In this document: one piece after another, positions 31,017 to 43,001 of the stretch | Layout of the letters: each line of letters starts with the position of its first letter | Position numbering within the stretch: position 1 is the stretch's first letter | NCBI GenBank assembly: GCA_020639295.1 | Contig: JACKGY010000003.1 | Span: 159,625 to 223,624, forward strand | DNA from: Planctomycetota bacterium | GTDB taxonomy: Bacteria > Planctomycetota > GCA-002687715 > DRQF01 | Direction: 5' to 3' | DNA: 64,000 nucleotides | The notes under the pieces: model-generated | Told to the model about the DNA's origin: nothing | The model's database searches: none | What the model saw: only the letters and a program-made list of their open reading frames with translations | Program-made: the position numbers and the translations under genes

Positions 31017-32126
31017 TTGCGAGAACGGAGCGGCAAGGTGTCGAAACGGGAACTCGACGAGTTGTGGCGGGAACGACGGGCGCGCCTGGACGAGGAGGGC
31101 GGTGCTCCCGCCTCCTTCGGTGATCCCGATGCCGAGGCTCGCGCCGCCCGGGCCGGTGCCGCGCTCTTCGATCACTCCGATCGCGATCTCCTCCGCATCC
31201 GCGGCGTGAAGGCCCTGGCCATGCTCCAGGGCCAGCTCACCAACGACGTCGCCCGTCTCGGACCCGGGGACGGCTGCTACGCCGCCCACCTCGATCCCAA
31301 GGGCAAGATGCTCGGCGACCTGGTCGTCGACGTCGAGGCCACCGACTCGGTCCTGCTCGAACTCGAACGCGGCCTGGGCACCGAATTCGCCCGCCGCTTC
31401 GCGCCCTTCGCCATGCTCGACGATCTCGTCATCGAGGACCTCGGTCGGCCCGCGCGGCTGATGCTGGTCGGCCCCGAGGCCGCGGCCAGCCTCGTCGGCC
31501 ATCTCGGCCGCGCCGAGCTCGCGGACCTGCCGGCGCATGCCGCGCTGGTGGTCGACTGGCAGGGTGTGCCGCTGCGTATCGGCGCCCGGGCCGAGACCGG
31601 CGAACGGGCCTACCTCGTCGCCGGCGACGACGCGACGCTCGCCCGCTTCGCGCGAGCCCTGATCGCGGGCGGCGTTCGACCGGCCGGCGGCGAGGCCTGG
31701 GAGATCCTCAGGATCGAGGCCGGCACGCCGCGCTGGGGTCGCGACATGGACGGGCGCAATCTCCCGCCCGAATGCGGCATCCCCCATGCGATCAGCTACA
31801 GCAAGGGCTGCTACGTCGGCCAGGAGACGGTCGCGCGGATCAGGACCTACGGCCAGGCGAACCGCGGCCTGCGCGGACTTCGCAGCACCGAGGCGATGCC
31901 GCCCGGGACGGAACTGGAGACCCGCGAGGGCAAGGCCGTGGGCCGGGTCACCTCGAGCGCCTGGTCGCCGCAGCTCGAGGCGCCGATCGCCCTGGGCTAC
32001 GTCCATCGCGATCAGCTCGAGGCCGGTAGCGCCCTCATCGGCCGCGCCGACGAGCGGATCTTCGAGGTCGAGGTCGCGGAGCTGCCCTTCGTGCCGCGAC
32101 GCTTCGCGCCCGAGATTCCTCGCTGA
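31017..32126 (+). CDS. ygfZ: YgfZ/GcvT-like folate-binding Fe-S cluster repair protein.
   Basis: GcvT-like N-terminal domain and the diagnostic KGCYVGQE motif. The start is uncertain (TTG at 31017 or GTG at 31038). Confidence 0.75.
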   Translation: MRERSGKVSKRELDELWRERRARLDEEGGAPASFGDPDAEARAARAGAALFDHSDRDLLRIRGVKALAMLQGQLTNDVARLGPGDGCYAAHLDPKGKMLGDLVVDVEATDSVLLELERGLGTEFARRFAPFAMLDDLVIEDLGRPARLMLVGPEAAASLVGHLGRAELADLPAHAALVVDWQGVPLRIGARAETGERAYLVAGDDATLARFARALIAGGVRPAGGEAWEILRIEAGTPRWGRDMDGRNLPPECGIPHAISYSKGCYVGQETVARIRTYGQANRGLRGLRSTEAMPPGTELETREGKAVGRVTSSAWSPQLEAPIALGYVHRDQLEAGSALIGRADERIFEVEVAELPFVPRRFAPEIPR

Positions 32127-32129
32127 GCC

Positions 32130-33374
32130 TCAGTCGGCGAGTCCCCAGCCGCCGTATTCCATGCCGAGCGACCGGGCCAACTCCTCGGCGGCGCGTGAGA
32201 GTTTGAAGACGGCGTCGAGTTTCCTCAGGGCGAGCTTGCTCTCGAGGCTCACGCGATGCCAACCGTCCTCGTTCTCGGGCTCCTTGATGGAGGCGCCCTC
32301 GAAGCCCGCCTCCTTCGCGGCGGCGGCCGCGGTCTGCGCGGCCTTGCCGTTGCGGGTCCAGAGGTCGTGGCGGACCGCGACGGCCTTGGTCGGGATCTCG
32401 CGTTGCAGACGGATGCGGGCCAGGGTCTGGAGGTCTTCCGATTCGCGCAGCGCCTCGTGGAAGTCGTCGAAGTTCTTCTGCAGCTCCTTGGCGTCGAGCT
32501 TCAGTTCCTTGCCCGCGGGGAGCTTGGCCAGCTTGCCGGCGATCAGTTCGTTGCTGGTGCCGAGGATGTCGAAGTGGTCGGCGCCGGCCACGAGGCAGAA
32601 GCGCAGGGCCGGGTTGGTGGTGGCGGCCTGCATCGCCTTCAGGGACTCGGCCGTATCGCGTTCCGTTCCGCAGATCACCCAGGTCGGCGACTTGACGGCG
32701 GCGAGGTAGCGGATCGGCGCGCGCAGCCGGCGCTCGTTCGAGTTGCTCTGGTCGTAGGCGATGGACTTGTCACCGTAGTTCGAGGGGTCGTCGGCCGCGC
32801 CGAAGGCGAAGATTCCGGCGAAACCGTCGGAAGCCGTGGCGACGAGGAGCGCCAGCGTACCGCCGGTGCTGTGTCCGCCCAGATAGATGCGGTCCGGATC
32901 GACTTCCGGACGCTGCTTCAGGTAGGCCAGCGCGGACAGGACGTCGTCGACCTCGCCGAAGTAGCTCTCCTGACAACCCGGATTGGCGAAGCTCCCGCGC
33001 AGTGTCGGGTACATCATGATCAGGCCGGCCTGGCGGTAGGCGGCGGCCCCCTGGTCGTTCTCGGGATCCTGGGGCAGCCAGGCGCAATCCTCGATGCCAC
33101 CGAGGGGGAAGCCACCGATCAGCCAGATGATCGCCGGCGACTTCTTCGCCCCCGGCTCGGGCCTCGAGATCAGGGCCTTCATCTTGCCGATCGAGGTCTC
33201 GTAGCGAACCAGATCGAACAGCGAGGCCGGGAACTCGGGGACCTCGTCCGGTTTCGAGATTCGCCGCTCCAACTTGGTGGTGAAACCGCGCCGGGCGGTG
33301 AGGAGGTCGCCTCCGTCCTGGGCTCCGAGCGGTGAGAGAAGCAGGAGAGTGACGAAGATGCTGCGGAGCGACAT
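32130..33374 (-). CDS. Secreted alpha/beta-hydrolase (S9/dienelactone-hydrolase-like) with an extra C-terminal domain.
   Basis: Signal peptide MSLRSIFVTLLLLSPLGAQ, nucleophile elbow GGHSTGG, and GADHFD (His). The roughly 110-aa C-terminal domain has unclear affinity. Confidence 0.7.
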   Translation of the reverse strand: MSLRSIFVTLLLLSPLGAQDGGDLLTARRGFTTKLERRISKPDEVPEFPASLFDLVRYETSIGKMKALISRPEPGAKKSPAIIWLIGGFPLGGIEDCAWLPQDPENDQGAAAYRQAGLIMMYPTLRGSFANPGCQESYFGEVDDVLSALAYLKQRPEVDPDRIYLGGHSTGGTLALLVATASDGFAGIFAFGAADDPSNYGDKSIAYDQSNSNERRLRAPIRYLAAVKSPTWVICGTERDTAESLKAMQAATTNPALRFCLVAGADHFDILGTSNELIAGKLAKLPAGKELKLDAKELQKNFDDFHEALRESEDLQTLARIRLQREIPTKAVAVRHDLWTRNGKAAQTAAAAAKEAGFEGASIKEPENEDGWHRVSLESKLALRKLDAVFKLSRAAEELARSLGMEYGGWGLAD

Positions 33375-33488
33375 GCCGGTTCCTTACTTGCGATGGCCTG
33401 ATCGAATCAGCATGTTCCTGAATGCCGGGGACCGGTCAAGCCCCTTCCGGTGATCGGCGAGCTGCTATGATCCGGGCGGAGAAGAACC

Positions 33489-33917
33489 ATGACCGACATC
33501 GGCCTGACCCACGTCGCCCTGCCGATCCGTGACGCCGAGCGGAGCATCTCGTTCTGGTCGCGCTACGCGGGCATGCAGGTCGTTCATCGGCGCCACGGCG
33601 AGAGCGAGGACCGCGAGGTGGTCTGGCTCTCGGATCGGACGCGGCCCTTCGTCATCGTCCTGATCGAGGCCGACGAGGTCGACGTCGTCCTCGCGCCGAT
33701 CGCCCATCTCGGCGTCGGCTGTCCCACCCGGGAGGACGTCGACCGCCTGGCGGCGCTGGCGGGGGCGAGCGGCTGCCTCGTGCGTGGCCCGGAGGACTCC
33801 GGCTATCCGGTCGGCTACTGGGCCTTCCTGCGCGATCCGGACGGACACATCCTGGAACTCTCGCACGGTCAGGAGGTGGGCCTCGCCGTTGCCGATCCGG
33901 GGCAGGGGATCGATTGA
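33489..33917 (+). CDS. VOC/glyoxalase-family protein.
   Basis: 142 aa. LTHVALPIRDAERSISFW...FLRDPDGHILEL is typical of glyoxalase/bleomycin-resistance folds. Confidence 0.8.
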   Translation: MTDIGLTHVALPIRDAERSISFWSRYAGMQVVHRRHGESEDREVVWLSDRTRPFVIVLIEADEVDVVLAPIAHLGVGCPTREDVDRLAALAGASGCLVRGPEDSGYPVGYWAFLRDPDGHILELSHGQEVGLAVADPGQGID

Positions 33918-33924
33918 GGCGGCG

Positions 33925-34641
33925 ATGATCCGACTGATCCTGAGCTGTGAACACGGTGGCAACGACGTCCCCGACGAATGGCTGCCCAGGCGTCGTTGCG
34001 ACGACCTCGTCCTGACCAGCCACCGCGGCCTCGACCTCGGCGCCCTGGAGCTGGCTCGCGAGCTCGCCCAGGCCTGCGCCGCGCCCCTCGTCTTCGCTAC
34101 CGTCACCCGCCTGCTCATCGATCTCAACCGCGAGCAGGGCAGCCGGACGATGTTCTCGCCCGAGGCCTTCGAACTCGACGAGGACGATCGCCAGCTGCTG
34201 ATCGAGCGTTACTGGCGCCCTCATCACGAGCAGGTCGAGTCGCTCCTGCGGCAGGCCCTCGACGCGGGCGACCGCGTCCTCTACCTGTCGGTCCACAGCT
34301 TCACGCCGGTCTTCGACGGCCGGGAACGCAAGGTCGACCTCGGTCTCCTGATCGATCCTGGGCGCGCGATCGACGCCGAGCTGGCCCGCCACTTCGCCAC
34401 CGAGTTCGAGCGCCGGCGACCCGGCCTCGCGATCGCAATGAACGAGCCCTACTCCGGACTGGAAGAGGGGCTCGACCGGGCGATGCGCGCGCGCTTCGGC
34501 GATCGCGACTGCATGATCCTCACCCTCGAATTGAACCAGCGCTTCCCGCAGGGCGATGGCGCGGCCTGGCGCGCGCTGCGCCAGGCGATCACGGCGACGG
34601 TCCGCCAGCTGCTCGAGGACCCGGAACTTCAGCGGAGCTGA
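33925..34641 (+). CDS. N-formylglutamate amidohydrolase (FGase/HutG-like) family amidohydrolase.
   Basis: 238 aa from the ATG at 33925. LSCEHGGNDVP, TRLLIDLNR, SVHSFTP and NEPYSG resemble PF05013-type proteins. Its 3' end overlaps the convergent GCS2 gene by 13 nt. Confidence 0.7.
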   Translation: MIRLILSCEHGGNDVPDEWLPRRRCDDLVLTSHRGLDLGALELARELAQACAAPLVFATVTRLLIDLNREQGSRTMFSPEAFELDEDDRQLLIERYWRPHHEQVESLLRQALDAGDRVLYLSVHSFTPVFDGRERKVDLGLLIDPGRAIDAELARHFATEFERRRPGLAIAMNEPYSGLEEGLDRAMRARFGDRDCMILTLELNQRFPQGDGAAWRALRQAITATVRQLLEDPELQRS

Positions 34642-35864
34642 CGGTTCTCGACCAGGCAGCTCGACAGCTCGCGGCAGAGACCGACCAGATCCTCGTGCGT
34701 GGGGTCGGCGCCGACCCGTTTCAGGATGCGGCGGGCCAGAGGCCCCTCGTCGGTCATCACCCGCATCGCCTCGGCGACCTCGGTGTCGACGTCCGGAGCC
34801 AGCTCGGCGCGTAGCACTCGCCAGAGCTCACCGGCGGTCATCGGTCCACGCTCCCGCTGGCCGAATAGCGCCAGGAAGTCGAGGTTCTCGATCAGCGCCC
34901 GGTCGCCGTCCTTGACCACGGCGTCGAAGACGTCGGCCAGCGGGTCGACCGGCCAGGACTTCTGCTGGTCGAGGGTCGACCAGCGCTCCTCGACCAGCGC
35001 CCGGACCAGGTGGATGACCAGGGCGCACATCGCATGGTCGGCGGTCGGGCACTCCTGCGAGTCGAGGATGCGGATCTCGATCGCCATGCGGTCGAAGCGG
35101 GCGATGGCGCCGCGCGCGTTCAGCCACTCCTCCTGCAGGATGCCCTCCGGGTCGTGCTTCGCGATGTCGCGGTAGATCCTCTGGAGGAGATCCTTCTGGT
35201 AGGAATCGTGGTCGAAGACCTGTTCCGGCACGACGCGGCCGCTGACGCTGGGCACCGCCCGGGCATTGCTCCGGTAGACGGCGAGCCGCTGGTCGAGATG
35301 GGGCGCGATCTTGCCGTCCATGATGGGCGTGCTCGCCGACAGGGCGGGCAGGATCGGCAAGGCGACCCGGATCGCCGCGTGCAGGCGACCGAATTCCTCG
35401 TCGTCGGCGAAGGGCAGGTTGATGTGGACCGACTGCAGGTTCGACCAGCCGTGGCCCTTGCAGGAGAAGATGCGATCGAAGGCCTCGTAGACCGGGCTGT
35501 AGTCGTGCGGCCAGAGCGTGGTCTCGAGCAGCGGATCCATGAAGGGATGGGTGCCGCTCGGCATCAACCGCGCGCCATGCTCGGCGAGGATGCCGTCGAT
35601 CCGGCGCAGGTCCGCGTGCAGGGCGGCGCTCAGGCCGCGCAGCAGTGGGCGCGGGCCGTTGGTCTTGAGCTCGATCACGTGCAGGACCAGCTCGTTCGAC
35701 CAGGCCAGCTCCTCGAACTCGACGTCGCCGACGTAGGTGCCGGCGATCGCCTTCAGCACCTGATCGCAGAGCGGCCGGATCGCGAAGGTCTCGGCGTCGA
35801 CGATCATGTACTCGACCTCGATGCCGTAGGCCTGGAACAGGTGCAGGTTGACGTCGTCGCTCAT
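34629..35864 (-). CDS. Carboxylate-amine ligase, glutamate-cysteine ligase family 2 (GCS2/YbdK-like).
   Basis: 411 aa. GIEVEYMIVD, HVIELKT, SVHINLPF and AIEIRILD are characteristic of the GCS2 fold. Confidence 0.72.
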   Translation of the reverse strand: MSDDVNLHLFQAYGIEVEYMIVDAETFAIRPLCDQVLKAIAGTYVGDVEFEELAWSNELVLHVIELKTNGPRPLLRGLSAALHADLRRIDGILAEHGARLMPSGTHPFMDPLLETTLWPHDYSPVYEAFDRIFSCKGHGWSNLQSVHINLPFADDEEFGRLHAAIRVALPILPALSASTPIMDGKIAPHLDQRLAVYRSNARAVPSVSGRVVPEQVFDHDSYQKDLLQRIYRDIAKHDPEGILQEEWLNARGAIARFDRMAIEIRILDSQECPTADHAMCALVIHLVRALVEERWSTLDQQKSWPVDPLADVFDAVVKDGDRALIENLDFLALFGQRERGPMTAGELWRVLRAELAPDVDTEVAEAMRVMTDEGPLARRILKRVGADPTHEDLVGLCRELSSCLVENRQLR

Positions 35865-37327
35865 CGCGTCTTTCCGGCCTTCTTGGCCTCGATCCTCTTC
35901 AGGAACACCTGGGCCAGCCGCTCGTGCAGCTCCATGCCGAGGATCTCGTCCTCGAGCCCGGCGTCGATGTTCGGGTTGTCGTTCACTTCCATCACCACGA
36001 TGCGCTTGCCCGACTCCTTGATGTCGACCCCGTAGAGGCCGCTGCCGATGGCATTCGCGGCCTTGAGGGCGGTCCGGACCACGCGCGGCGGGGCGTCGGC
36101 CACGGCCAGGGTGTCGACCATGCCGTAGCGATCGTCGCCCTTGCCCCCCGCGTTGATGATCTGCCAGTGACCGGGCGCCATGTGGTAGCGGCAGACCCAG
36201 AGCGGCTGGCGGTCGAGCACGCCGACCCGCCAGTCGAAGTCGGTGGGCATGAACTCCTGGGCGACGAAGAGGTCGGACTCCTGGAGGATCGTCATCGCCT
36301 TGGCGCGCAGCTCCTCCTCGTCGCGGGCCTTGAGCACGCCCTGCGAGAAGGCGCTGTCCGGCGACTTGAGGACGCAGGGCAGGCCGATCTGGTTGATGAT
36401 CTCGTCCAGGTTCTCACGGTGCCCGACCAGGGTCTGCGGGGTCGGGATCTTCAGCCTCTGCATCAGCTCGGCCAGGTAGACCTTGTTGGTGCAGCGGATG
36501 ATGGACTGCGGGTCGTCGATGACCACGAGGCCCTCGGCCTCGGCGCGTTGCGCGAAGCGATAGGTGTGATGGTTGACCTGGGTCGTCTCGCGGATGTAGA
36601 GGGCGTCGTACTCGGGCAGGCTCGAGTAGTCGTCCTTGGTGATCCGGAACACCCGGATGTCGACCTCGTCGCAGGCCTTGATGAAGCGCTTGAGCGCCTT
36701 CTCGTTGGAGGGTGCGTGGGTGTCGTCGGGCTTGACCAGGAGGGCCAGGTCGAAGCGCGAGGGCTGGGTCTTCCGGCCCCGGGGCCGCCGCGCCGAGAAG
36801 TACTCGCGGGCCGCCTCGATCACGAAGGGACGATGGCCATCGGGGATCTTGCGGGCCGAAAGCGGCGCGATGCCGGTCAGGTGCCATTTGTCGCTACGCG
36901 CGAAGGTCGCCCTGAGGAGCGGCACGTGGAACTGGGCGAAGAGCCGGCGCGACAACGGGTCGTAGCGCCGGGCCAGGTTGCGGCCGAAGTAGATCGACAG
37001 CTCGAACTTGTCCGACTTCAGCCGCGCGAGCGAGCGCTGGATCGTGTCTTCGAGGTCCTCGTCGACGATGCCGAGGATCGTGCGCGAACGCATGTCCAGG
37101 ATGGTCTGCAGCGACGGCGTCGGGGTGTGGCCGCGCGCGACCGCCAGCAGCGAGACGTAGTAGCCGTTGCCCTGGTAGCGGTAGGAGCGGCAGAGGTTGA
37201 AGATCTTGAGGTTGCGCGCCGCGCTCCAACGGGCCTCGGTCAGGTACTCCTTCGCCGCCACGACCTCGAGGCCGGGAAGCTCGAGAGGCCAGAGGCGGGG
37301 ATCGTCGACGATGAGAATGCTGGCCAC
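35861..37327 (-). CDS. RimK-like ATP-grasp ligase with a roughly 200-aa N-terminal extension.
   Basis: 488 aa. ATP-grasp blocks GLPCVLKSPDSAFSQGV, VAQEFMPTDFDWRVGVL and GLYGVDIKESGKRIVVMEVNDNPNID. ATGA overlap with the GCS2 start (35861-35864). Confidence 0.82.
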   Translation of the reverse strand: MASILIVDDPRLWPLELPGLEVVAAKEYLTEARWSAARNLKIFNLCRSYRYQGNGYYVSLLAVARGHTPTPSLQTILDMRSRTILGIVDEDLEDTIQRSLARLKSDKFELSIYFGRNLARRYDPLSRRLFAQFHVPLLRATFARSDKWHLTGIAPLSARKIPDGHRPFVIEAAREYFSARRPRGRKTQPSRFDLALLVKPDDTHAPSNEKALKRFIKACDEVDIRVFRITKDDYSSLPEYDALYIRETTQVNHHTYRFAQRAEAEGLVVIDDPQSIIRCTNKVYLAELMQRLKIPTPQTLVGHRENLDEIINQIGLPCVLKSPDSAFSQGVLKARDEEELRAKAMTILQESDLFVAQEFMPTDFDWRVGVLDRQPLWVCRYHMAPGHWQIINAGGKGDDRYGMVDTLAVADAPPRVVRTALKAANAIGSGLYGVDIKESGKRIVVMEVNDNPNIDAGLEDEILGMELHERLAQVFLKRIEAKKAGKTR

Positions 37328-37418
37328 GGGTCAGTCCTTTCCACGTCCGGCCGGGACATGGAGGATCCGATTCGTCCGTGGGCGACGACTGGGAGGCTCC
37401 CCGCCAGCCAAGGGTCCG

Positions 37419-38117
37419 TCAACTGGGCTCGATGATGATGAGGTTGCCATCGTAGGTGATGACGCCGAGCAGGATGGCGCCGAGAACTCTTTCGATGCCG
37501 ATCTCGTAGTGGAGGGTCGGCGAATGTGGATTGGCGCTCCAGGGATCGGCAATCTCGACCCGGCCGCTCAGGCTGTCATAGCCGCAGAGGGTGACGAAAT
37601 GACCGGTCGGCGCGCCGCCGATCGGGTCGGACTTGTTGGTTTGCGGGTCGTCGCGGGCCTCGTCGTAGAGGTAGGTCGCGCTCAGTCCGGTGAGGATGGG
37701 CAGACCGCGTTCCAGGTAGCGGCGCAGCAGCGAGGGCCTGAGTTCCTCCCAGGCCACCTTGCCGCCCAACTCCAGGTAGCGCAGGTAGGCGGGGATCGCC
37801 GCCCGCAGCCGCGGCCGGGTCAGGGCCGTCATCCGGGCCCGGAGGTTCTCGGCCAGGGGCGCGGCATCGAGGCGAAACCAGGTCGGATCGAAGACCTTGA
37901 GGTTGTAGGGGTGCATCGTGACCCGGTAGCCGCGCTCGAGGGCGTGGCAGCCGAGGAGGACGCCGAGCGTGCCCCCGGTCGCGAGCTGGGGGACCTCCGC
38001 GATCACCTCGGGCAAGGGGACCGGGTCGTCGAAGAAACGATAGACGGCGGCGAGACAGGTCGGCCCACAGGTGACGTCGTCAGGCTGCGGGATCATCTCG
38101 AGTTCGATCTGGTTCAT
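37419..38117 (-). CDS. Papain-fold cysteine peptidase, C39-like/BtrH-like.
   Basis: 232 aa from the ATG at 38117. QPDDVTCGPTCLAAVY is the Gln...Cys catalytic motif, GHFVTLCGYD provides the His, and ADPW follows. There is no ABC transporter fusion and no signal peptide. Confidence 0.62.
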   Translation of the reverse strand: MNQIELEMIPQPDDVTCGPTCLAAVYRFFDDPVPLPEVIAEVPQLATGGTLGVLLGCHALERGYRVTMHPYNLKVFDPTWFRLDAAPLAENLRARMTALTRPRLRAAIPAYLRYLELGGKVAWEELRPSLLRRYLERGLPILTGLSATYLYDEARDDPQTNKSDPIGGAPTGHFVTLCGYDSLSGRVEIADPWSANPHSPTLHYEIGIERVLGAILLGVITYDGNLIIIEPS

Positions 38118-38281
38118 GGCGCGCGCTACCCGCCGGGAAACCGACACCGATTGACGATAGCCGGGCGGAGCGCCACGGCAAGGCCCGGACGGCGCTTCGG
38201 TGCCGGCGGGTGGGGGCAAAAGGAGCGCGGAAGGACCGGCGCCGGGAGGAAGCAGGGCATCCTCCCGGATGCTCGGCAGGG

Positions 38282-39508
<1,227 letters not shown>

Positions 39509-39740
39509 CACGGCAACTCCTCTGGGGCCGGTCCGGGTTCGGGGACCGTGCTCTTCACGTCGGCATGCTAACACCCGGGACCACCGCGGTCAGTTTTTGC
39601 CGGCTCCTGGAAGTCATTTTGTGAACGTCTTTTAGGCCCGCTCGACTCGCCTGCGACGAGCTGTCCGGGCGCTGACCTTGGCGGCGGGAAAGGAGAAATT
39701 CTCGAAAGTCCGCTTGTCATCGGGCTCGATGTCTGGATAA

Positions 39741-39772
39741 CTACGACAGCTTTCGTACTACGACCGTCGTAG
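39741..39772 (+). promoter_or_regulatory. Candidate BlaI-type operator: two adjacent inverted repeats built on CTACGA/TCGTAG half-sites.
   Basis: CTACGAcagcttTCGTAc at 39741-39758, and the perfect palindrome CTACGACcGTCGTAG at 39758-39772, which ends 12 nt before the blaI-like ATG. Confidence 0.5.
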
Positions 39773-39783
39773 AAAGGGCAGAG

Positions 39784-40194
39784 ATGACGAGAGAGAACTC
39801 ACGAACCCCGACCGAGGCGGAACTCCGGATCCTCAAGGTCCTCTGGCGCAAGGGGCCGGCCACCGCGCGCGGGGTCCTCGAGATCCTCGAGGACCAGGCT
39901 GGCGGCAAGGTCGGCTACACCACCGTGCTGAAGATGCTCCAGATCATGGAGAAGAAGGAGCTGGTGAGCGTCGACCGCTCCGAGCGCTCGCACGTCTACA
40001 GCCCGCGCGTCGCCGAGACCCCGACCCTGCGGCAGGCGGTCAGCGAGTTCGTCGACCGGACCTTCGGCGGCGACCCCGCCGGGCTCCTGGTCCATCTGGT
40101 GCGTGACGGCAGGCTCGACGAGCGTTCCCTGGAGGAGCTGGAGCGGAGCATCGAGTTGCTGCGCCGCAGCGAGGAAGAGCAGGAGGATCGATGA
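39784..40194 (+). CDS. BlaI/MecI/CopY-family transcriptional repressor.
   Basis: 136 aa. Winged-helix N-terminus (EAELRILKVLWRKGPATARGVLE..YTTVLKMLQIMEKKELV). Its stop overlaps the next ATG. Confidence 0.88.
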   Translation: MTRENSRTPTEAELRILKVLWRKGPATARGVLEILEDQAGGKVGYTTVLKMLQIMEKKELVSVDRSERSHVYSPRVAETPTLRQAVSEFVDRTFGGDPAGLLVHLVRDGRLDERSLEELERSIELLRRSEEEQEDR

Positions 40195-43001
40195 TGTCTG
40201 GCTTCGACTCGATGATCATGGCGGACGTCGCCCTGCGCGGCCTGGTGCTGGCCCTGGCGGCCTTCCTGGGCTGCCGACTCCTTGGGCGCGATGCCGCCGC
40301 GGCCCGACACGGCCTCGCCCTGGCGGCCCTCGTCCTGCTGCTGCTCCTGCCCCTGGGCCTGCTCCTGGGCGGCCCCAGCGTCCATCTCTACGAACGCGAG
40401 CTGCCCCCGGTGGCGGAGCTCGTGCTCGAACCGGTCGCGCCGATCTTCCTCGAGGACGACTTCGCGATCAGCCGTCGCATCCTGCGCCCGGAAGAGTTCG
40501 ACGCCGGCGCTTTCGCCCCCGCGGACGCTCCGGCCCCGGACGACTCCGAGACCTCCGGCGCGGCCTCGCCGAATGAGGCCGGCTCCCCGGTGACTCCTGC
40601 GCTCGCGGCGGCGGCGCCGGTACCCGCATCGACCGGCGGCGCGGTCGACTGGTCCACCTGGGGCCCGATTCTGGCCTGGGCCCTCGGAGCCCTGGTCGTG
40701 GCCCTCCGCTGGCTCGTCACCCGCAGGCGGCTGCGGCAGCTCCTGCGCGCGTCCGCGCGGCCGGACGTGGCCTTGAGCCGCCTCGTGGCCCGGGTCGCGA
40801 AGCGTGCCGGGCTAGTCCGCGCGCCCCGCATCCACGTCTGCCCGGGTCTGGACTCGCCGGCGGTGACCGGCATCTTGATGCCGCGGCTGCTCCTGCCGGC
40901 GGACGTCGCCAGCGAACTCGACCAACGGCTGCTCGAGCCGATCGTCCTCCACGAGATGGTCCATCTCCGGCGCCGTGACCCCCTTCTGCAGGCTCTCGCC
41001 CGGCTGGTCGGCTTCCTGCACTGGTTCAATCCCTTCGCCCGGCTCCTGCGCGCCTCGCTCGAGCGCGACCGCGAGCTGCTCACCGACGCCCGGGTCGTCG
41101 CCCTCGAGGCCCATCGGTCTCCCTACGCGGAAGGCCTGCTGCGCGTGGTGAGTCGTGGCGTTCGCGGCCCGCTGCGACCGGTCGCGGCCCTCGGGCTCTG
41201 CGATGGCGAGAGCCTCCGCGATCGACTGGCGCGCATCGTTCGGGGCGACACCGTGCGGCCCGGGTCGCGCTGGGTGCTCGGCACGCTCACGCTCGTGGTC
41301 CTGGTCTGTGGTCTCCTCGTGGGCGAGGTCGGACTGGCCGGCGTGGTGATGGGACGCGGACCCTCGCGACAGGACGAGGAGCGGGTCGAGGCCACCCTGC
41401 GCGTCTTCGTTCTTCCCGCCGCCGATCGTGATGACGGCAAGAGCTTCCGGATCAAGGACCGCCGGCTCGATCTGGACGAATTGAAGGCGACCCTGGCGCG
41501 CTACTCGGTGATGGCGGACGAGAAGTACGATGATGGCCGTGGTCTGTCGTCGACCCGGGTGATCGTCGAGCTATCGGAGGACGACCAGCGGGACGATCTG
41601 AAGGCCCTGCTCCGGATCTGCGCCGATCTCCGGATCTATCGCAACGAGCTGCGCGATCCGCAGCCGCGGCCGCGGGCTCGACGCGGTCTCGTGGTCGACC
41701 TCGATGACGAGGGCCGCCTCCGCCTTGGCCCCGATGGCAGCTTCGACCCGGTCCAGGACGTCGACGCCATCCTCACCGCCGTCCGTGAGCGCCTCCGGAC
41801 CGATGAGACCCCGATCCTGAGATCCGCGCCCGGAGTGGACCATCGTCGGGTCATCAAGGCCCTGGAACTCATGCGTCGCGCCGGCGCCGACCGGGTCACC
41901 TTCGAGACCCGCGTGCCGGATGGCGACGAGAACGCCCTGTCCGAGCAGCGTCGTGCCGCCCTGCGCCGGGCCACGCCGCAGGACTCGATCGAGCCGGCCC
42001 TGGACTATCTTCGCCGGCGTCAGGACGCGCGGGGCGCGGTCACCGAGCCCGAGCTGGGCGACGGCGGGCGTCACGACGTCGGCCGGACCGCGCTCGCCCT
42101 GCTCGCCTACCTCGGCGCCGGGTCGACCGACCAGGCGGGCCCCTACCGGAAGGTGGTCGCTCGCGCCGTCGACTTCCTCCTGGCCCAGCAGGCGAAGGAC
42201 GGTTTCATCGGCGATTCCACCGGGGTCGACACGGTCTACGACCACGCCCTCGCCGGTCTGGCCCTGGCGGAACTCCAGGGCCTGACCCGCTCGCCACGGC
42301 TCGAGCGTCCGCTGGCGGCGGCGGTGAGCTACGTGCTCGAGGCTCAGAATCCCTACCGCGGCTGGCGCTACGGCAAGCGCGACGGCGACAACGACACCGC
42401 GGTCACCACCTGGATGTTGATGTTCCTTAAGTCGGCCCGGGCCGCCGGCGTCGAGGTGCCGGAGCTCGCCTTCGAATACGCCGAGGGCTACCTCGAGGAG
42501 ATGATCGACCCGAACACCGGTCGCGCCGGCTACATCCGCCCTGGCGGACAGCAGCCGGTGAGCGCGACCGACGGCAAGGCGACCGGCACCCGGGCCCAGG
42601 TCGAGACCACCACCGCGATGGTGAACTTCGGCCTCGTCCTCTGTGGGCGCAAGCCGAACGACCCGCTCATCGAGCGCGGCCGCGGCCTCCTGCGCGCGGC
42701 GCCACCCAGCTGGGATCCGGTCGGAGGCCGGGTGGACTACGTCTACTGGTACTTCGGCTGCCTGGCCAACTACCAGGCCGGCGGCAGCGACTGGGTCGGC
42801 TGGGACGAACATCTGCGCGACGCCCTCGTCGGTCGGCAGGTGGAGGAGGGTGATCTGGCCGGCTCCTGGGATCCGATCGGGATCTGGGGCAAGGAATGCG
42901 GCCGCGTGGCCGCCACCGCACTCGCGACGCTCGCGCTCGAGGTGAGCTGGCGCTATGGCCGGGCCGTGGGCATCCGGCCCGTGGAGAGGAAGAAGGATTG
43001 A
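40191..43001 (+). CDS. BlaR1/M56-peptidase-type membrane sensor fused to a large C-terminal prenyltransferase/squalene-cyclase-like repeat domain.
   Basis: 936 aa. TM segments, then the M56 zinc motif LHEMVHLRRRD. The C-terminal region carries repeated Q-x(3-5)-G-(W/F)-type motifs (RRRQDARGAV, AQQAKDGFIGD, AQNPYRGWRY) typical of alpha/alpha-toroid repeats. Confidence 0.8.
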   Translation: MMSGFDSMIMADVALRGLVLALAAFLGCRLLGRDAAAARHGLALAALVLLLLLPLGLLLGGPSVHLYERELPPVAELVLEPVAPIFLEDDFAISRRILRPEEFDAGAFAPADAPAPDDSETSGAASPNEAGSPVTPALAAAAPVPASTGGAVDWSTWGPILAWALGALVVALRWLVTRRRLRQLLRASARPDVALSRLVARVAKRAGLVRAPRIHVCPGLDSPAVTGILMPRLLLPADVASELDQRLLEPIVLHEMVHLRRRDPLLQALARLVGFLHWFNPFARLLRASLERDRELLTDARVVALEAHRSPYAEGLLRVVSRGVRGPLRPVAALGLCDGESLRDRLARIVRGDTVRPGSRWVLGTLTLVVLVCGLLVGEVGLAGVVMGRGPSRQDEERVEATLRVFVLPAADRDDGKSFRIKDRRLDLDELKATLARYSVMADEKYDDGRGLSSTRVIVELSEDDQRDDLKALLRICADLRIYRNELRDPQPRPRARRGLVVDLDDEGRLRLGPDGSFDPVQDVDAILTAVRERLRTDETPILRSAPGVDHRRVIKALELMRRAGADRVTFETRVPDGDENALSEQRRAALRRATPQDSIEPALDYLRRRQDARGAVTEPELGDGGRHDVGRTALALLAYLGAGSTDQAGPYRKVVARAVDFLLAQQAKDGFIGDSTGVDTVYDHALAGLALAELQGLTRSPRLERPLAAAVSYVLEAQNPYRGWRYGKRDGDNDTAVTTWMLMFLKSARAAGVEVPELAFEYAEGYLEEMIDPNTGRAGYIRPGGQQPVSATDGKATGTRAQVETTTAMVNFGLVLCGRKPNDPLIERGRGLLRAAPPSWDPVGGRVDYVYWYFGCLANYQAGGSDWVGWDEHLRDALVGRQVEEGDLAGSWDPIGIWGKECGRVAATALATLALEVSWRYGRAVGIRPVERKKD

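Follow-up and report, generated by a model that had tools for sequence, protein, structure and literature searches.

A conserved peptidase, RLAN-RimK and GCS2 gene module, frequently accompanied by an FGase-family amidohydrolase, in a Planctomycetota bacterium and across bacterial phyla

Do two ATP-dependent amide ligases and two amide-cleaving enzymes encoded side by side in a Planctomycetota bacterium belong to one system, and if so, what would that system make? The four genes are found in a stretch of 64,000 nucleotides (nt; hereafter the window), corresponding to positions 159,625 to 223,624 of the forward strand of contig JACKGY010000003.1 (assembly GCA_020639295.1). An original prediction, made from the DNA letters alone, had grouped them into an amidoligase-type cluster consisting of a peptidase, a RimK-like ATP-grasp ligase, a GCS2 ligase, and a convergent FGase-like amidohydrolase. 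Comparison of this locus with its relatives in other genomes supports the four genes as a functional module, in which the linkage is very strong for the peptidase, RLAN-RimK, and GCS2 genes and moderate for FGase. The components of the module in the window are as follows:

37419-38117, minus strand: gene for a papain-fold cysteine peptidase, predicted to be cytoplasmic, 232 amino acids (aa), first of the operon (open reading frame (ORF) list; PF13529)
37328-37418, minus strand: peptidase-ligase spacer of 91 nt, with GGAAAGGA (Shine-Dalgarno-like) before the GTG start, as read directly
35861-37327, minus strand: gene for the RLAN-RimK ligase, GTG start (ORF list; PF14401 and PF08443)
36815-37255, minus strand: RLAN domain of the ligase, aa 25-171 (PF14401, 9e-46)
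35861-36745, minus strand: RimK/LysX-type ATP-grasp module of the ligase, aa ~195-488, including the stop codon (PF08443)
34629-35864, minus strand: gene for a divergent GCS2-type carboxylate-amine ligase, 411 aa (PF04107, 97 bits)
33925-34641, plus strand: gene for an FGase-family amidohydrolase, 238 aa, accessory and inverted here (PF05013, 111 bits)

More than 597 relatives emerged when an RLAN-RimK profile was searched against one genome per species; the 80 best loci were retrieved, and their six-frame ORFs were searched with the window proteins. The locus figures given below have as denominators those loci with enough sequence to judge, and cover the closest orthologous clade, with at least 49% identity to the query ligase. 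The 80 loci span at least 14 phylum-level lineages, among them Planctomycetota, Pseudomonadota (gamma and beta), Thermodesulfobacteriota, Myxococcota, Nitrospinota, Nitrospirota, Acidobacteriota, Bacteroidota, Balneolaceae, Spirochaetota, Verrucomicrobiota, Gemmatimonadota, Fibrobacterota, and Sumerlaeota. The peptidase gene lies immediately 5' of the RLAN-RimK gene on the same strand in 72/78 loci, and the GCS2 gene lies immediately 3' of it, again on the same strand, in 65/72 loci and nearby in two more. In 39/66 loci FGase comes right after GCS2 and in the same orientation; two more loci have it within 10 kb, and 25 have none. These counts define a core of three genes (peptidase, RLAN-RimK, and GCS2), with FGase as a frequent accessory in ~60% of loci. 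A reciprocal test that started from four peptidase homologues recovered RLAN-RimK followed by GCS2 in 4/4 and FGase in 3/4. Furthermore, the pairwise identities of the three core proteins, which average ~53-54% across phyla, are correlated (Mantel r 0.54-0.65, p ≤ 0.001, 62 loci), a pattern that fits inheritance as a unit, part of this correlation being expected from shared phylogeny alone. Cultured carriers of the module include Blastopirellula marina DSM 3645, Planctomicrobium sp. SH527, Thiobacillus thioparus DSM 505, and Pontibacter ruber.

The window locus itself conforms to this organization, with the RLAN-RimK fusion, the peptidase upstream, GCS2 downstream on the same strand, and an inverted FGase next to GCS2. 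The gene order put forward in the original prediction is thus kept across phyla, with one amendment: the three core genes are fixed, and the fourth belongs to the set in only ~60% of loci. Taken as a general arrangement, the convergent FGase does not hold, as elsewhere FGase follows GCS2 on the same strand. The FGase of the window is orthologous to these codirectional FGases (28-44% identity). In its nearest relative, L081 (86% identity), a convergent FGase is also found behind a VOC/glyoxalase-family gene (L081:4100-5234), and the convergent orientation is a lineage-specific inversion.

The G+C content of the window is 65-72%, a composition at which long chance ORFs are common. Judged by homology, all four ORFs are real genes, since the peptidase and RLAN-RimK proteins have thousands of homologues at 50-60% identity in homologue searches, and homologues of GCS2 and FGase are present in most of the 80 fetched loci. 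The ORF list and the homologue alignment agree on the four genes at the coordinates originally predicted, with FGase starting at the ATG at 33925, where the homologue alignment begins (the preceding VOC gene ends at 33917). Direct reading bears out both predicted overlaps. The stop of RLAN-RimK and the start of GCS2 share an ATGA ("...acg cgA TGA gcg"), which points to cotranslation of the ligase and GCS2, and the 3' ends of GCS2 and FGase overlap convergently by 13 nt at 34629-34641. The peptidase and ligase genes abut or overlap in most other loci, versus the 91-nt spacer here. A protein 100% identical to the ligase is present in a Planctomycetota metagenome-assembled genome. Two loci elsewhere depart from the expected gene calls: at L086:7373-9454 the GCS2 gene is intact but uncalled in the public gene calls, and at L087:6718-8176 the ligase is split into pieces of 441 aa and 59 aa, a frameshift or assembly error.

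The RLAN-RimK ligase joins an RLAN domain (PF14401, 9e-46, aa 25-171) to a RimK ATP-grasp domain (PF08443, 2.4e-11, aa 281-456). The original prediction described an N-terminal extension of roughly 200 aa; this extension is real and is not unnamed, corresponding as it does to the Pfam RLAN domain, and the module is therefore not unknown to comparative genomics. The RLAN motif N-L-C-x-S-Y-x-Y-x3-G-Y-Y-x-S-L-L-A-x-A-R is kept in every genomic context examined, and 13 RLAN positions, among them N44, G55, Y56, Y57, R65, and W148, are invariant in all of them. RLAN Cys46 is ruled out as a catalytic residue, as it is Ser in Azospirillum. A structural model of RLAN (window 36713-37327, minus strand, aa 1-205) has a predicted local distance difference test score (pLDDT) of 81; its structural neighbors are weak, and the stronger ones are all ATP-grasp proteins, namely synapsin, ArgX/LysX, and ITPK1 (E from 3e-3, template modeling (TM) score ~0.5). 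Going by this model, RLAN may have arisen from the N-terminal part of an ATP-grasp fold by copying and degeneration. An hhalign comparison of RLAN with the C-terminal ATP-grasp half of the same protein matched only the 16 residues that had deliberately been overlapped; an origin as an internal duplicate of the ATP-grasp thus finds no support in hhalign, and the Foldseek resemblance stays a lead. The profile of the ATP-grasp half aligns to LysX (3vpd) and RimK (7qyr/5zct), and the D...E-x-N Mg motif is kept, with D435, E447, and N449 invariant. Against curated models, the ligase scores 81.1 bits for TIGR00768 (rimK_fam, cut-off 143.4) and 26.2 for the second RimK model, NF007764 (cut-off 331), 73.6 for LysX TIGR02144 (cut-off 275.6), 57 for MptN (cut-off 350), 34 for CofF (cut-off 300), 21.9 and 29 for the GshB models (cut-offs 272 and 408), and 16.8 for cyanophycin synthetase TIGR02068 (cut-off 850); a Mur-ligase domain was not found in Pfam.

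The GCS2 protein has PF04107 as its only Pfam match (1.7e-27, 97 bits) and scores 18-57 bits against the NCBIfam gshA/YbdK models, the cut-offs of which are 176-437 (57.3 versus 176.4 at best). Its profile reaches YbdK (1r8g) only at 1.7e-4, the family being very remote from YbdK, and the residues invariant among 25 homologues include E16, E18, H62, E65, H106, H147, R251, E263, and R265. The FGase matches PF05013 (8.7e-32, 111 bits) and scores 24.6 bits against the HutG equivalog TIGR02017, which has a cut-off of 278.75. As its profile finds the uncharacterized Atu2144 (2odf) at 5.6e-39 and a true FGase (2q7s) only at 2e-5, this FGase-like protein groups, on profile similarity, with Atu2144 and not with bona fide HutG.

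The peptidase matches PF13529 (Peptidase_C39_2; 3.5e-07, 31 bits) over only its C-terminal 63 residues, and its sequence has no match among solved structures. Q11, C17, H173, and D191 are invariant in 28 homologues and correspond to the papain/C39 catalytic set. Foldseek comparison of the AlphaFold model (pLDDT 89.5, predicted TM score (pTM) 0.87) with the PDB gives weak matches throughout (TM 0.45-0.54, ~12% identity) to several papain-fold families, with the pseudomurein endoisopeptidase PeiR as the best, alongside the C39 domains of PCAT1/ComA and an uncharacterized Bacillus C39-like protein; phytochelatin synthase Alr0975, including its glutathione acyl-enzyme, is also among these neighbors. 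The "BtrH-like" label given to the peptidase in the original prediction finds no support, as BtrH_N has no match in the peptidase at E ≤ 0.01. With ~90 residues more than a C39 leader peptidase domain, the peptidase represents a papain-fold family of its own.

Subtyping by profile thus gives the same answer for all four proteins, each of which falls below the curated cut-off of every named enzyme (RimK, LysX, GshA, GshB, HutG, and cyanophycin synthetase). Conserved residues of active-site type are kept in all four, consisting outside the peptidase of acidic/His motifs and the Mg motif, and on these residues all four enzymes look active.

What surrounds the module is far less constant. All-against-all clustering of the flanking ORFs of the 80 loci returned no further conserved flanking gene; the clusters consist of promiscuous families only (kinases and ABC ATPases), in at most nine loci and at inconsistent positions. 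Nor does the module have a conserved transporter, substrate protein gene, or secretion signal at its side, in agreement with the original prediction that no precursor gene, transporter, or pathway marker is present. One further region was scanned for promoters, Rfam families, and small ORFs:

38118-38281, minus strand: non-coding region upstream of the operon

A blastp-short comparison of the ORFs of 18-110 aa located up to 700 nt to either side of the module revealed no conserved small ORF, including in the two intervals singled out earlier for a possible substrate (37328-37418 and 38118-38281); the matches obtained came solely from the near-identical pair L007/L009 and from peptidase N-termini. 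Rfam returned nothing over 32000-40500 at E ≤ 1, and thus no riboswitch or other RNA match; a promoter scan gave no sigma-70-like promoter upstream of the operon, and terminator-like sites are at chance level; PADLOC gave no defense-system match for any of the four proteins. With no conserved flanking gene, small ORF, RNA, promoter, or defense match, the module is self-contained and apparently cytoplasmic.

On the FGase side of the locus, the lineage-specific inversion brings in one additional neighbor:

33489-33917, plus strand: VOC/glyoxalase-family gene (PF00903), 8 nt upstream of FGase

This gene is present in L081 and absent from the other 80 loci, and is probably in the same transcription unit as FGase. 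The nearest named relatives of its product are thiol-dependent, and the matches are weak (FosA-like, 30 bits; glyoxalase I, 26 bits) and far under cut-off. The other genes read within 29.7-43 kb of the window belong to unrelated families, such as cysteine desulfurase, GcvT/YgfZ-like, and di-haem peroxidase. A gap of 164 nt separates the peptidase gene from the last of these, a MauG/MbnH-like di-haem cytochrome c peroxidase gene (38282-39574, minus strand) located upstream on that strand; L081 has it upstream too, and it is not conserved in other loci. A 414-aa protein encoded at 32130-33374 (minus strand) carries an S9/alpha-beta hydrolase domain and a C-terminal RraB (regulator of ribonuclease activity B), a pairing that looked unusual. 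Finally, at 39784-43001 (plus strand), a BlaI-type repressor gene shares 4 nt with the start of the next ORF, which encodes 936 aa and has an HEMVH zinc-protease motif (BlaR1-like) and a very long C-terminal extension.

The RLAN ligase is also found in other genomic contexts. In each of two homologue searches, 7,000 or more protein clusters were scored, and a full HMMER search of 1.84 billion cluster representatives recovered 977 with an RLAN domain. Several of these representatives carry ~150-175 extra N-terminal residues, and in 3/3 that were scanned against Pfam (P0308, P0380, and P0383) a GNAT acetyltransferase is fused before the RLAN-ATP-grasp. The best named match of the fused GNAT is RimI, below cut-off; with the Ngg model TIGR03103, the fusions align through the GNAT part only, at 19-33 bits (cut-off 569). 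In two Verrucomicrobiota/Kiritimatiellales loci (L071:9514-11455 and L076:2080-4090), GNAT is encoded by a gene of its own that runs into the start of the ligase gene, and peptidase, GCS2, and FGase are absent; the neighbors at these loci are an Orn/DAP/Arg decarboxylase family gene (Pfam) and then a putative DapA-like ORF. The fusions of this sister clade likewise lack peptidase, GCS2, and FGase. GNAT-RLAN fusions are found beside polyamine-synthesis genes and a SET-domain gene (L089:6001-7992) and behind a CitMHS/DcuC carboxylate transporter (L090:3517-5457 and L091). Divergent RLAN-RimK homologues (34-44% identity) in Pseudomonas aeruginosa, Azospirillum, and Aeromonas are solo. One of these (L082, P. 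aeruginosa plasmid record NZ_CP133752.1, 38432-40021; 44% identity) has as neighbors ggt, a Glu/Asp ABC transporter, pagP, and an SDR gene; this stretch resembles the chromosomal PA1345 region of P. aeruginosa, and a literature search for PA1345 returned incidental mentions only. The solo and GNAT contexts indicate that the ligase can work alone and that its N-acylating partner is interchangeable, GCS2 or GNAT according to the clade.

What might the module make? By analogy with related enzymes, we tentatively propose that it produces a small gamma-glutamyl/alpha-glutamyl peptide by a non-ribosomal route and also recycles it, which we regard as a real possibility but stop short of calling probable. 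The observed genes, families, conserved residues, and conserved operon would accommodate the following scheme, for which we infer the substrates, the order of the steps, and the role of each hydrolase. GCS2 and ATP would first couple a carboxylate with an amino group on another compound; if this carboxylate is the gamma-carboxyl of glutamate, as family analogy suggests, an N-gamma-glutamylated intermediate would result. RLAN-RimK would then activate the free alpha-carboxylate of this intermediate and add at least one L-glutamate-like residue, with the chemistry of its relatives RimK, MptN, CofF, and LysX. The papain-fold peptidase would cleave or transfer the product via an acyl-enzyme on C17, and the FGase-like metallo-amidohydrolase, where present, would likewise cleave or transfer it, so that the two hydrolases together might set the chain length or recycle the compound. 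All three annotated chemistries (GCS2, the RimK-family alpha-L-glutamate ligases, and N-acyl-glutamate amidohydrolase) involve glutamate. The substitution of GNAT for GCS2 fits an N-acylated small acid as the acceptor of the ligase, which would be N-acetyl or N-gamma-glutamyl depending on the clade, and the contexts of the GNAT-RLAN fusions (polyamine genes and the CitMHS carboxylate transporter) are small-molecule ones. The presence of the glutathione acyl-enzyme of phytochelatin synthase among the neighbors of the peptidase model may likewise be counted for a peptide product. The original prediction had put forward the logic of a small-peptide or peptide-tagging system; the conserved module of two ligases and two hydrolases agrees with this, and the glutathione-, poly-Glu-, or cyanophycin-like chemistry invoked with it is only an analogy.

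Several considerations weigh against a small peptide. The present data identify no substrate, and specificity is not transferable from known enzymes because all four proteins are far under every curated cut-off. RimI, the below-cut-off best match of the fused GNAT, is a protein N-terminal acetyltransferase, and a protein substrate fits equally. The unusually high mean identity of the core proteins across phyla could reflect a conserved macromolecular partner, and in a plain biosynthetic route one would not usually expect the tightest linkage to be with a peptidase. Finally, the Foldseek matches of the peptidase model are weak and spread over many papain-fold families.

A somewhat unlikely alternative, and the strongest of those considered, is that the module modifies a protein encoded elsewhere, with RLAN-RimK, and perhaps GCS2, attaching glutamates or a short peptide at the C-terminus or on a side chain of a conserved cellular protein, and the peptidase and FGase removing or trimming the modification. 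Precedents are the action of RimK/RimB on ribosomal protein S6 and that of PafA/Dop in pupylation, and the GCS2 superfamily is generally known to include the Pup ligase. The closest characterized relatives of the ligase, RimK and LysX, both act on protein C-terminal glutamates, although our ligase is below the cut-offs of both; likewise, the second ligase matches only PF04107 GCS2 and no Pup-ligase family in Pfam. The high conservation of the core proteins across phyla, an RLAN domain with an invariant surface motif that could serve as a docking module, and the RimI-like GNAT fused in the sister clade are all in keeping with a protein target, as is the known pairing of RimK with a trimming protease, RimB (PMC11957791). 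Set against this, the operon has no conserved candidate substrate gene or small carrier ORF next to it, and the alignments show a conserved acidic tail in none of the four proteins. In its boldest form, this proposal would make the module a new cytoplasmic protein-modification system in more than 12 bacterial phyla, in which the ligases write a glutamate-containing tag, the peptidase and FGase-like enzyme erase it, and RLAN docks the target, which we consider unlikely; an alternative of almost equal novelty would be an undescribed low-molecular-weight gamma-glutamyl peptide, such as a thiol or stress metabolite.

It is very unlikely that the module serves salvage or catabolism, with an amine or peptide fragment being gamma-glutamylated for processing, as in the Puu/Pau polyamine pathways, or with cell-wall or other Glu-containing peptides being dismantled and religated, in which case the two hydrolases would do the main work. 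Two hydrolases for Glu-type amide bonds are indeed present, and among the Foldseek matches of the peptidase a pseudomurein isopeptidase ranks first; one GNAT-RLAN fusion has polyamine genes nearby, and the solo homologue of P. aeruginosa lies near ggt and a Glu/Asp transporter. However, a purely degradative route does not readily account for two ligases that consume ATP, the operon has no conserved uptake system or additional catabolic gene at its side, and each of the contextual hints derives from a single locus in another clade. Lastly, that the genes are chance neighbors with unrelated functions, as the opposite strand of FGase here and its absence from ~40% of loci might suggest, can hardly be entertained, given that core order and strand hold in ~90% of evaluable loci across phyla while the flanks differ, that the reciprocal peptidase-side test agrees in every case, and that gene ends overlap; for the three core genes, the locus counts exclude it.

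Of these readings, the synthesis and recycling of a small glutamyl peptide remains the one we favor. RLAN-RimK neighborhoods of this kind have been recognized computationally since the amidoligase survey of 2009, and a Pfam RLAN family already exists; the amidoligase comparative genomics of Iyer, Abhiman, Burroughs and Aravind (2009, Mol Biosyst 5:1636) is said to show exactly this four-gene set. RLAN RimK-like ATP-grasp neighborhoods (PF14401) have the same architecture, being linked to a COOH-NH2 (GCS2) ligase and peptidases. A later article by these authors' group (PMC4431377) notes that ATP-grasp ligases frequently share an operon with COOH-NH2 ligases or GNATs. The searchable literature contains nothing that names RLAN/PF14401, links RimK with formylglutamate amidohydrolase, or characterizes such an operon, nothing relevant on GCS2/YbdK with RimK, and no report of an experimental product or substrate for the module. 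The original prediction had likewise stated that the combination has no experimentally defined product; the genes are co-conserved, and they map to no characterized pathway in that literature. The methylofuran MyfA/MyfB system and the Klebsiella CfmP ATP-grasp system are unrelated.

A number of characterized systems can be set aside on profile scores or gene content. HutG N-formylglutamate amidohydrolase and cyanophycin synthetase are excluded by the scores given above, the former also by a profile nearer to Atu2144 and the latter by the missing Mur-ligase domain; the LysW/LysX carrier system is excluded by its score and by the lack of a conserved small ORF, and pupylation (PafA/Dop/Pup) by PF04107 GCS2 being the only Pfam match and, again, by the lack of a conserved small ORF. 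No PADLOC match connects the module to known anti-phage defense systems. The peptidase has the Gln/Cys/His/Asp catalytic set of C39 bacteriocin-processing peptidases, but the ABC exporter and double-glycine leader peptide gene that go with these are missing, as there is no conserved transporter or small ORF, and PF03412 is unmatched at E ≤ 0.01.

Given how strongly the module is conserved over at least 14 phylum-level lineages, identifying its product would close a large annotation gap, with a new glutamate-based metabolite or a novel protein modification in bacteria as possible outcomes; for experiments, the core of three genes and the naturally occurring exchange of GCS2 for GNAT offer a clear design.

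Four characterized systems come closest. In glutathione biosynthesis, a GCS-type ligase (GshA) followed by an ATP-grasp ligase (GshB) would likewise build a gamma-Glu-X-Y tripeptide, but membership is rejected, as the module proteins are under the GshA and GshB cut-offs, and the module adds RLAN, a cysteine peptidase, and an FGase-like hydrolase. As in the RimK/RimB system, a RimK-family ATP-grasp with a conserved catalytic motif shares an operon with a peptidase gene; here, however, the ligase is under both curated RimK cut-offs, the peptidase is papain-fold and not retropepsin-like, and RLAN and GCS2 are without counterpart in the RimK system. In glutathionylspermidine synthetase/amidase, a papain-like amidase is combined with an ATP-grasp-like synthetase, and this enzyme and phytochelatin synthase both exemplify a Cys-His papain-fold enzyme coupled to an ATP-dependent amide ligase and a small gamma-glutamyl peptide. 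The module peptidase differs from phytochelatin synthase-like enzymes in having no sequence-level membership, with its partial C39_2 match only, and its Alr0975-type neighbors (TM 0.45-0.50, ~12% identity) are no better than the C39 leader peptidases or PeiR. Finally, the Nat8l/RIMKLA route makes N-acetyl-aspartyl-glutamate from an N-acetylated acceptor with a RimK-like ligase, and Ngg makes N-acetylglutaminylglutamine. The sister clade, in which a GNAT is fused to or precedes the ligase, resembles such GNAT-plus-RimK-like dipeptide synthetases, which suggests an N-acylated small acceptor; the operon in the window has GCS2 and a peptidase in place of a GNAT, and the sister fusions are not Ngg. 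The window locus is thus an ordinary member of a widespread module that is present in Pfam without a reported function, to which it adds only the FGase inversion, and relative to the characterized systems the module is a new variant of two-ligase peptide synthesis whose gene set will itself be no surprise to the specialist.

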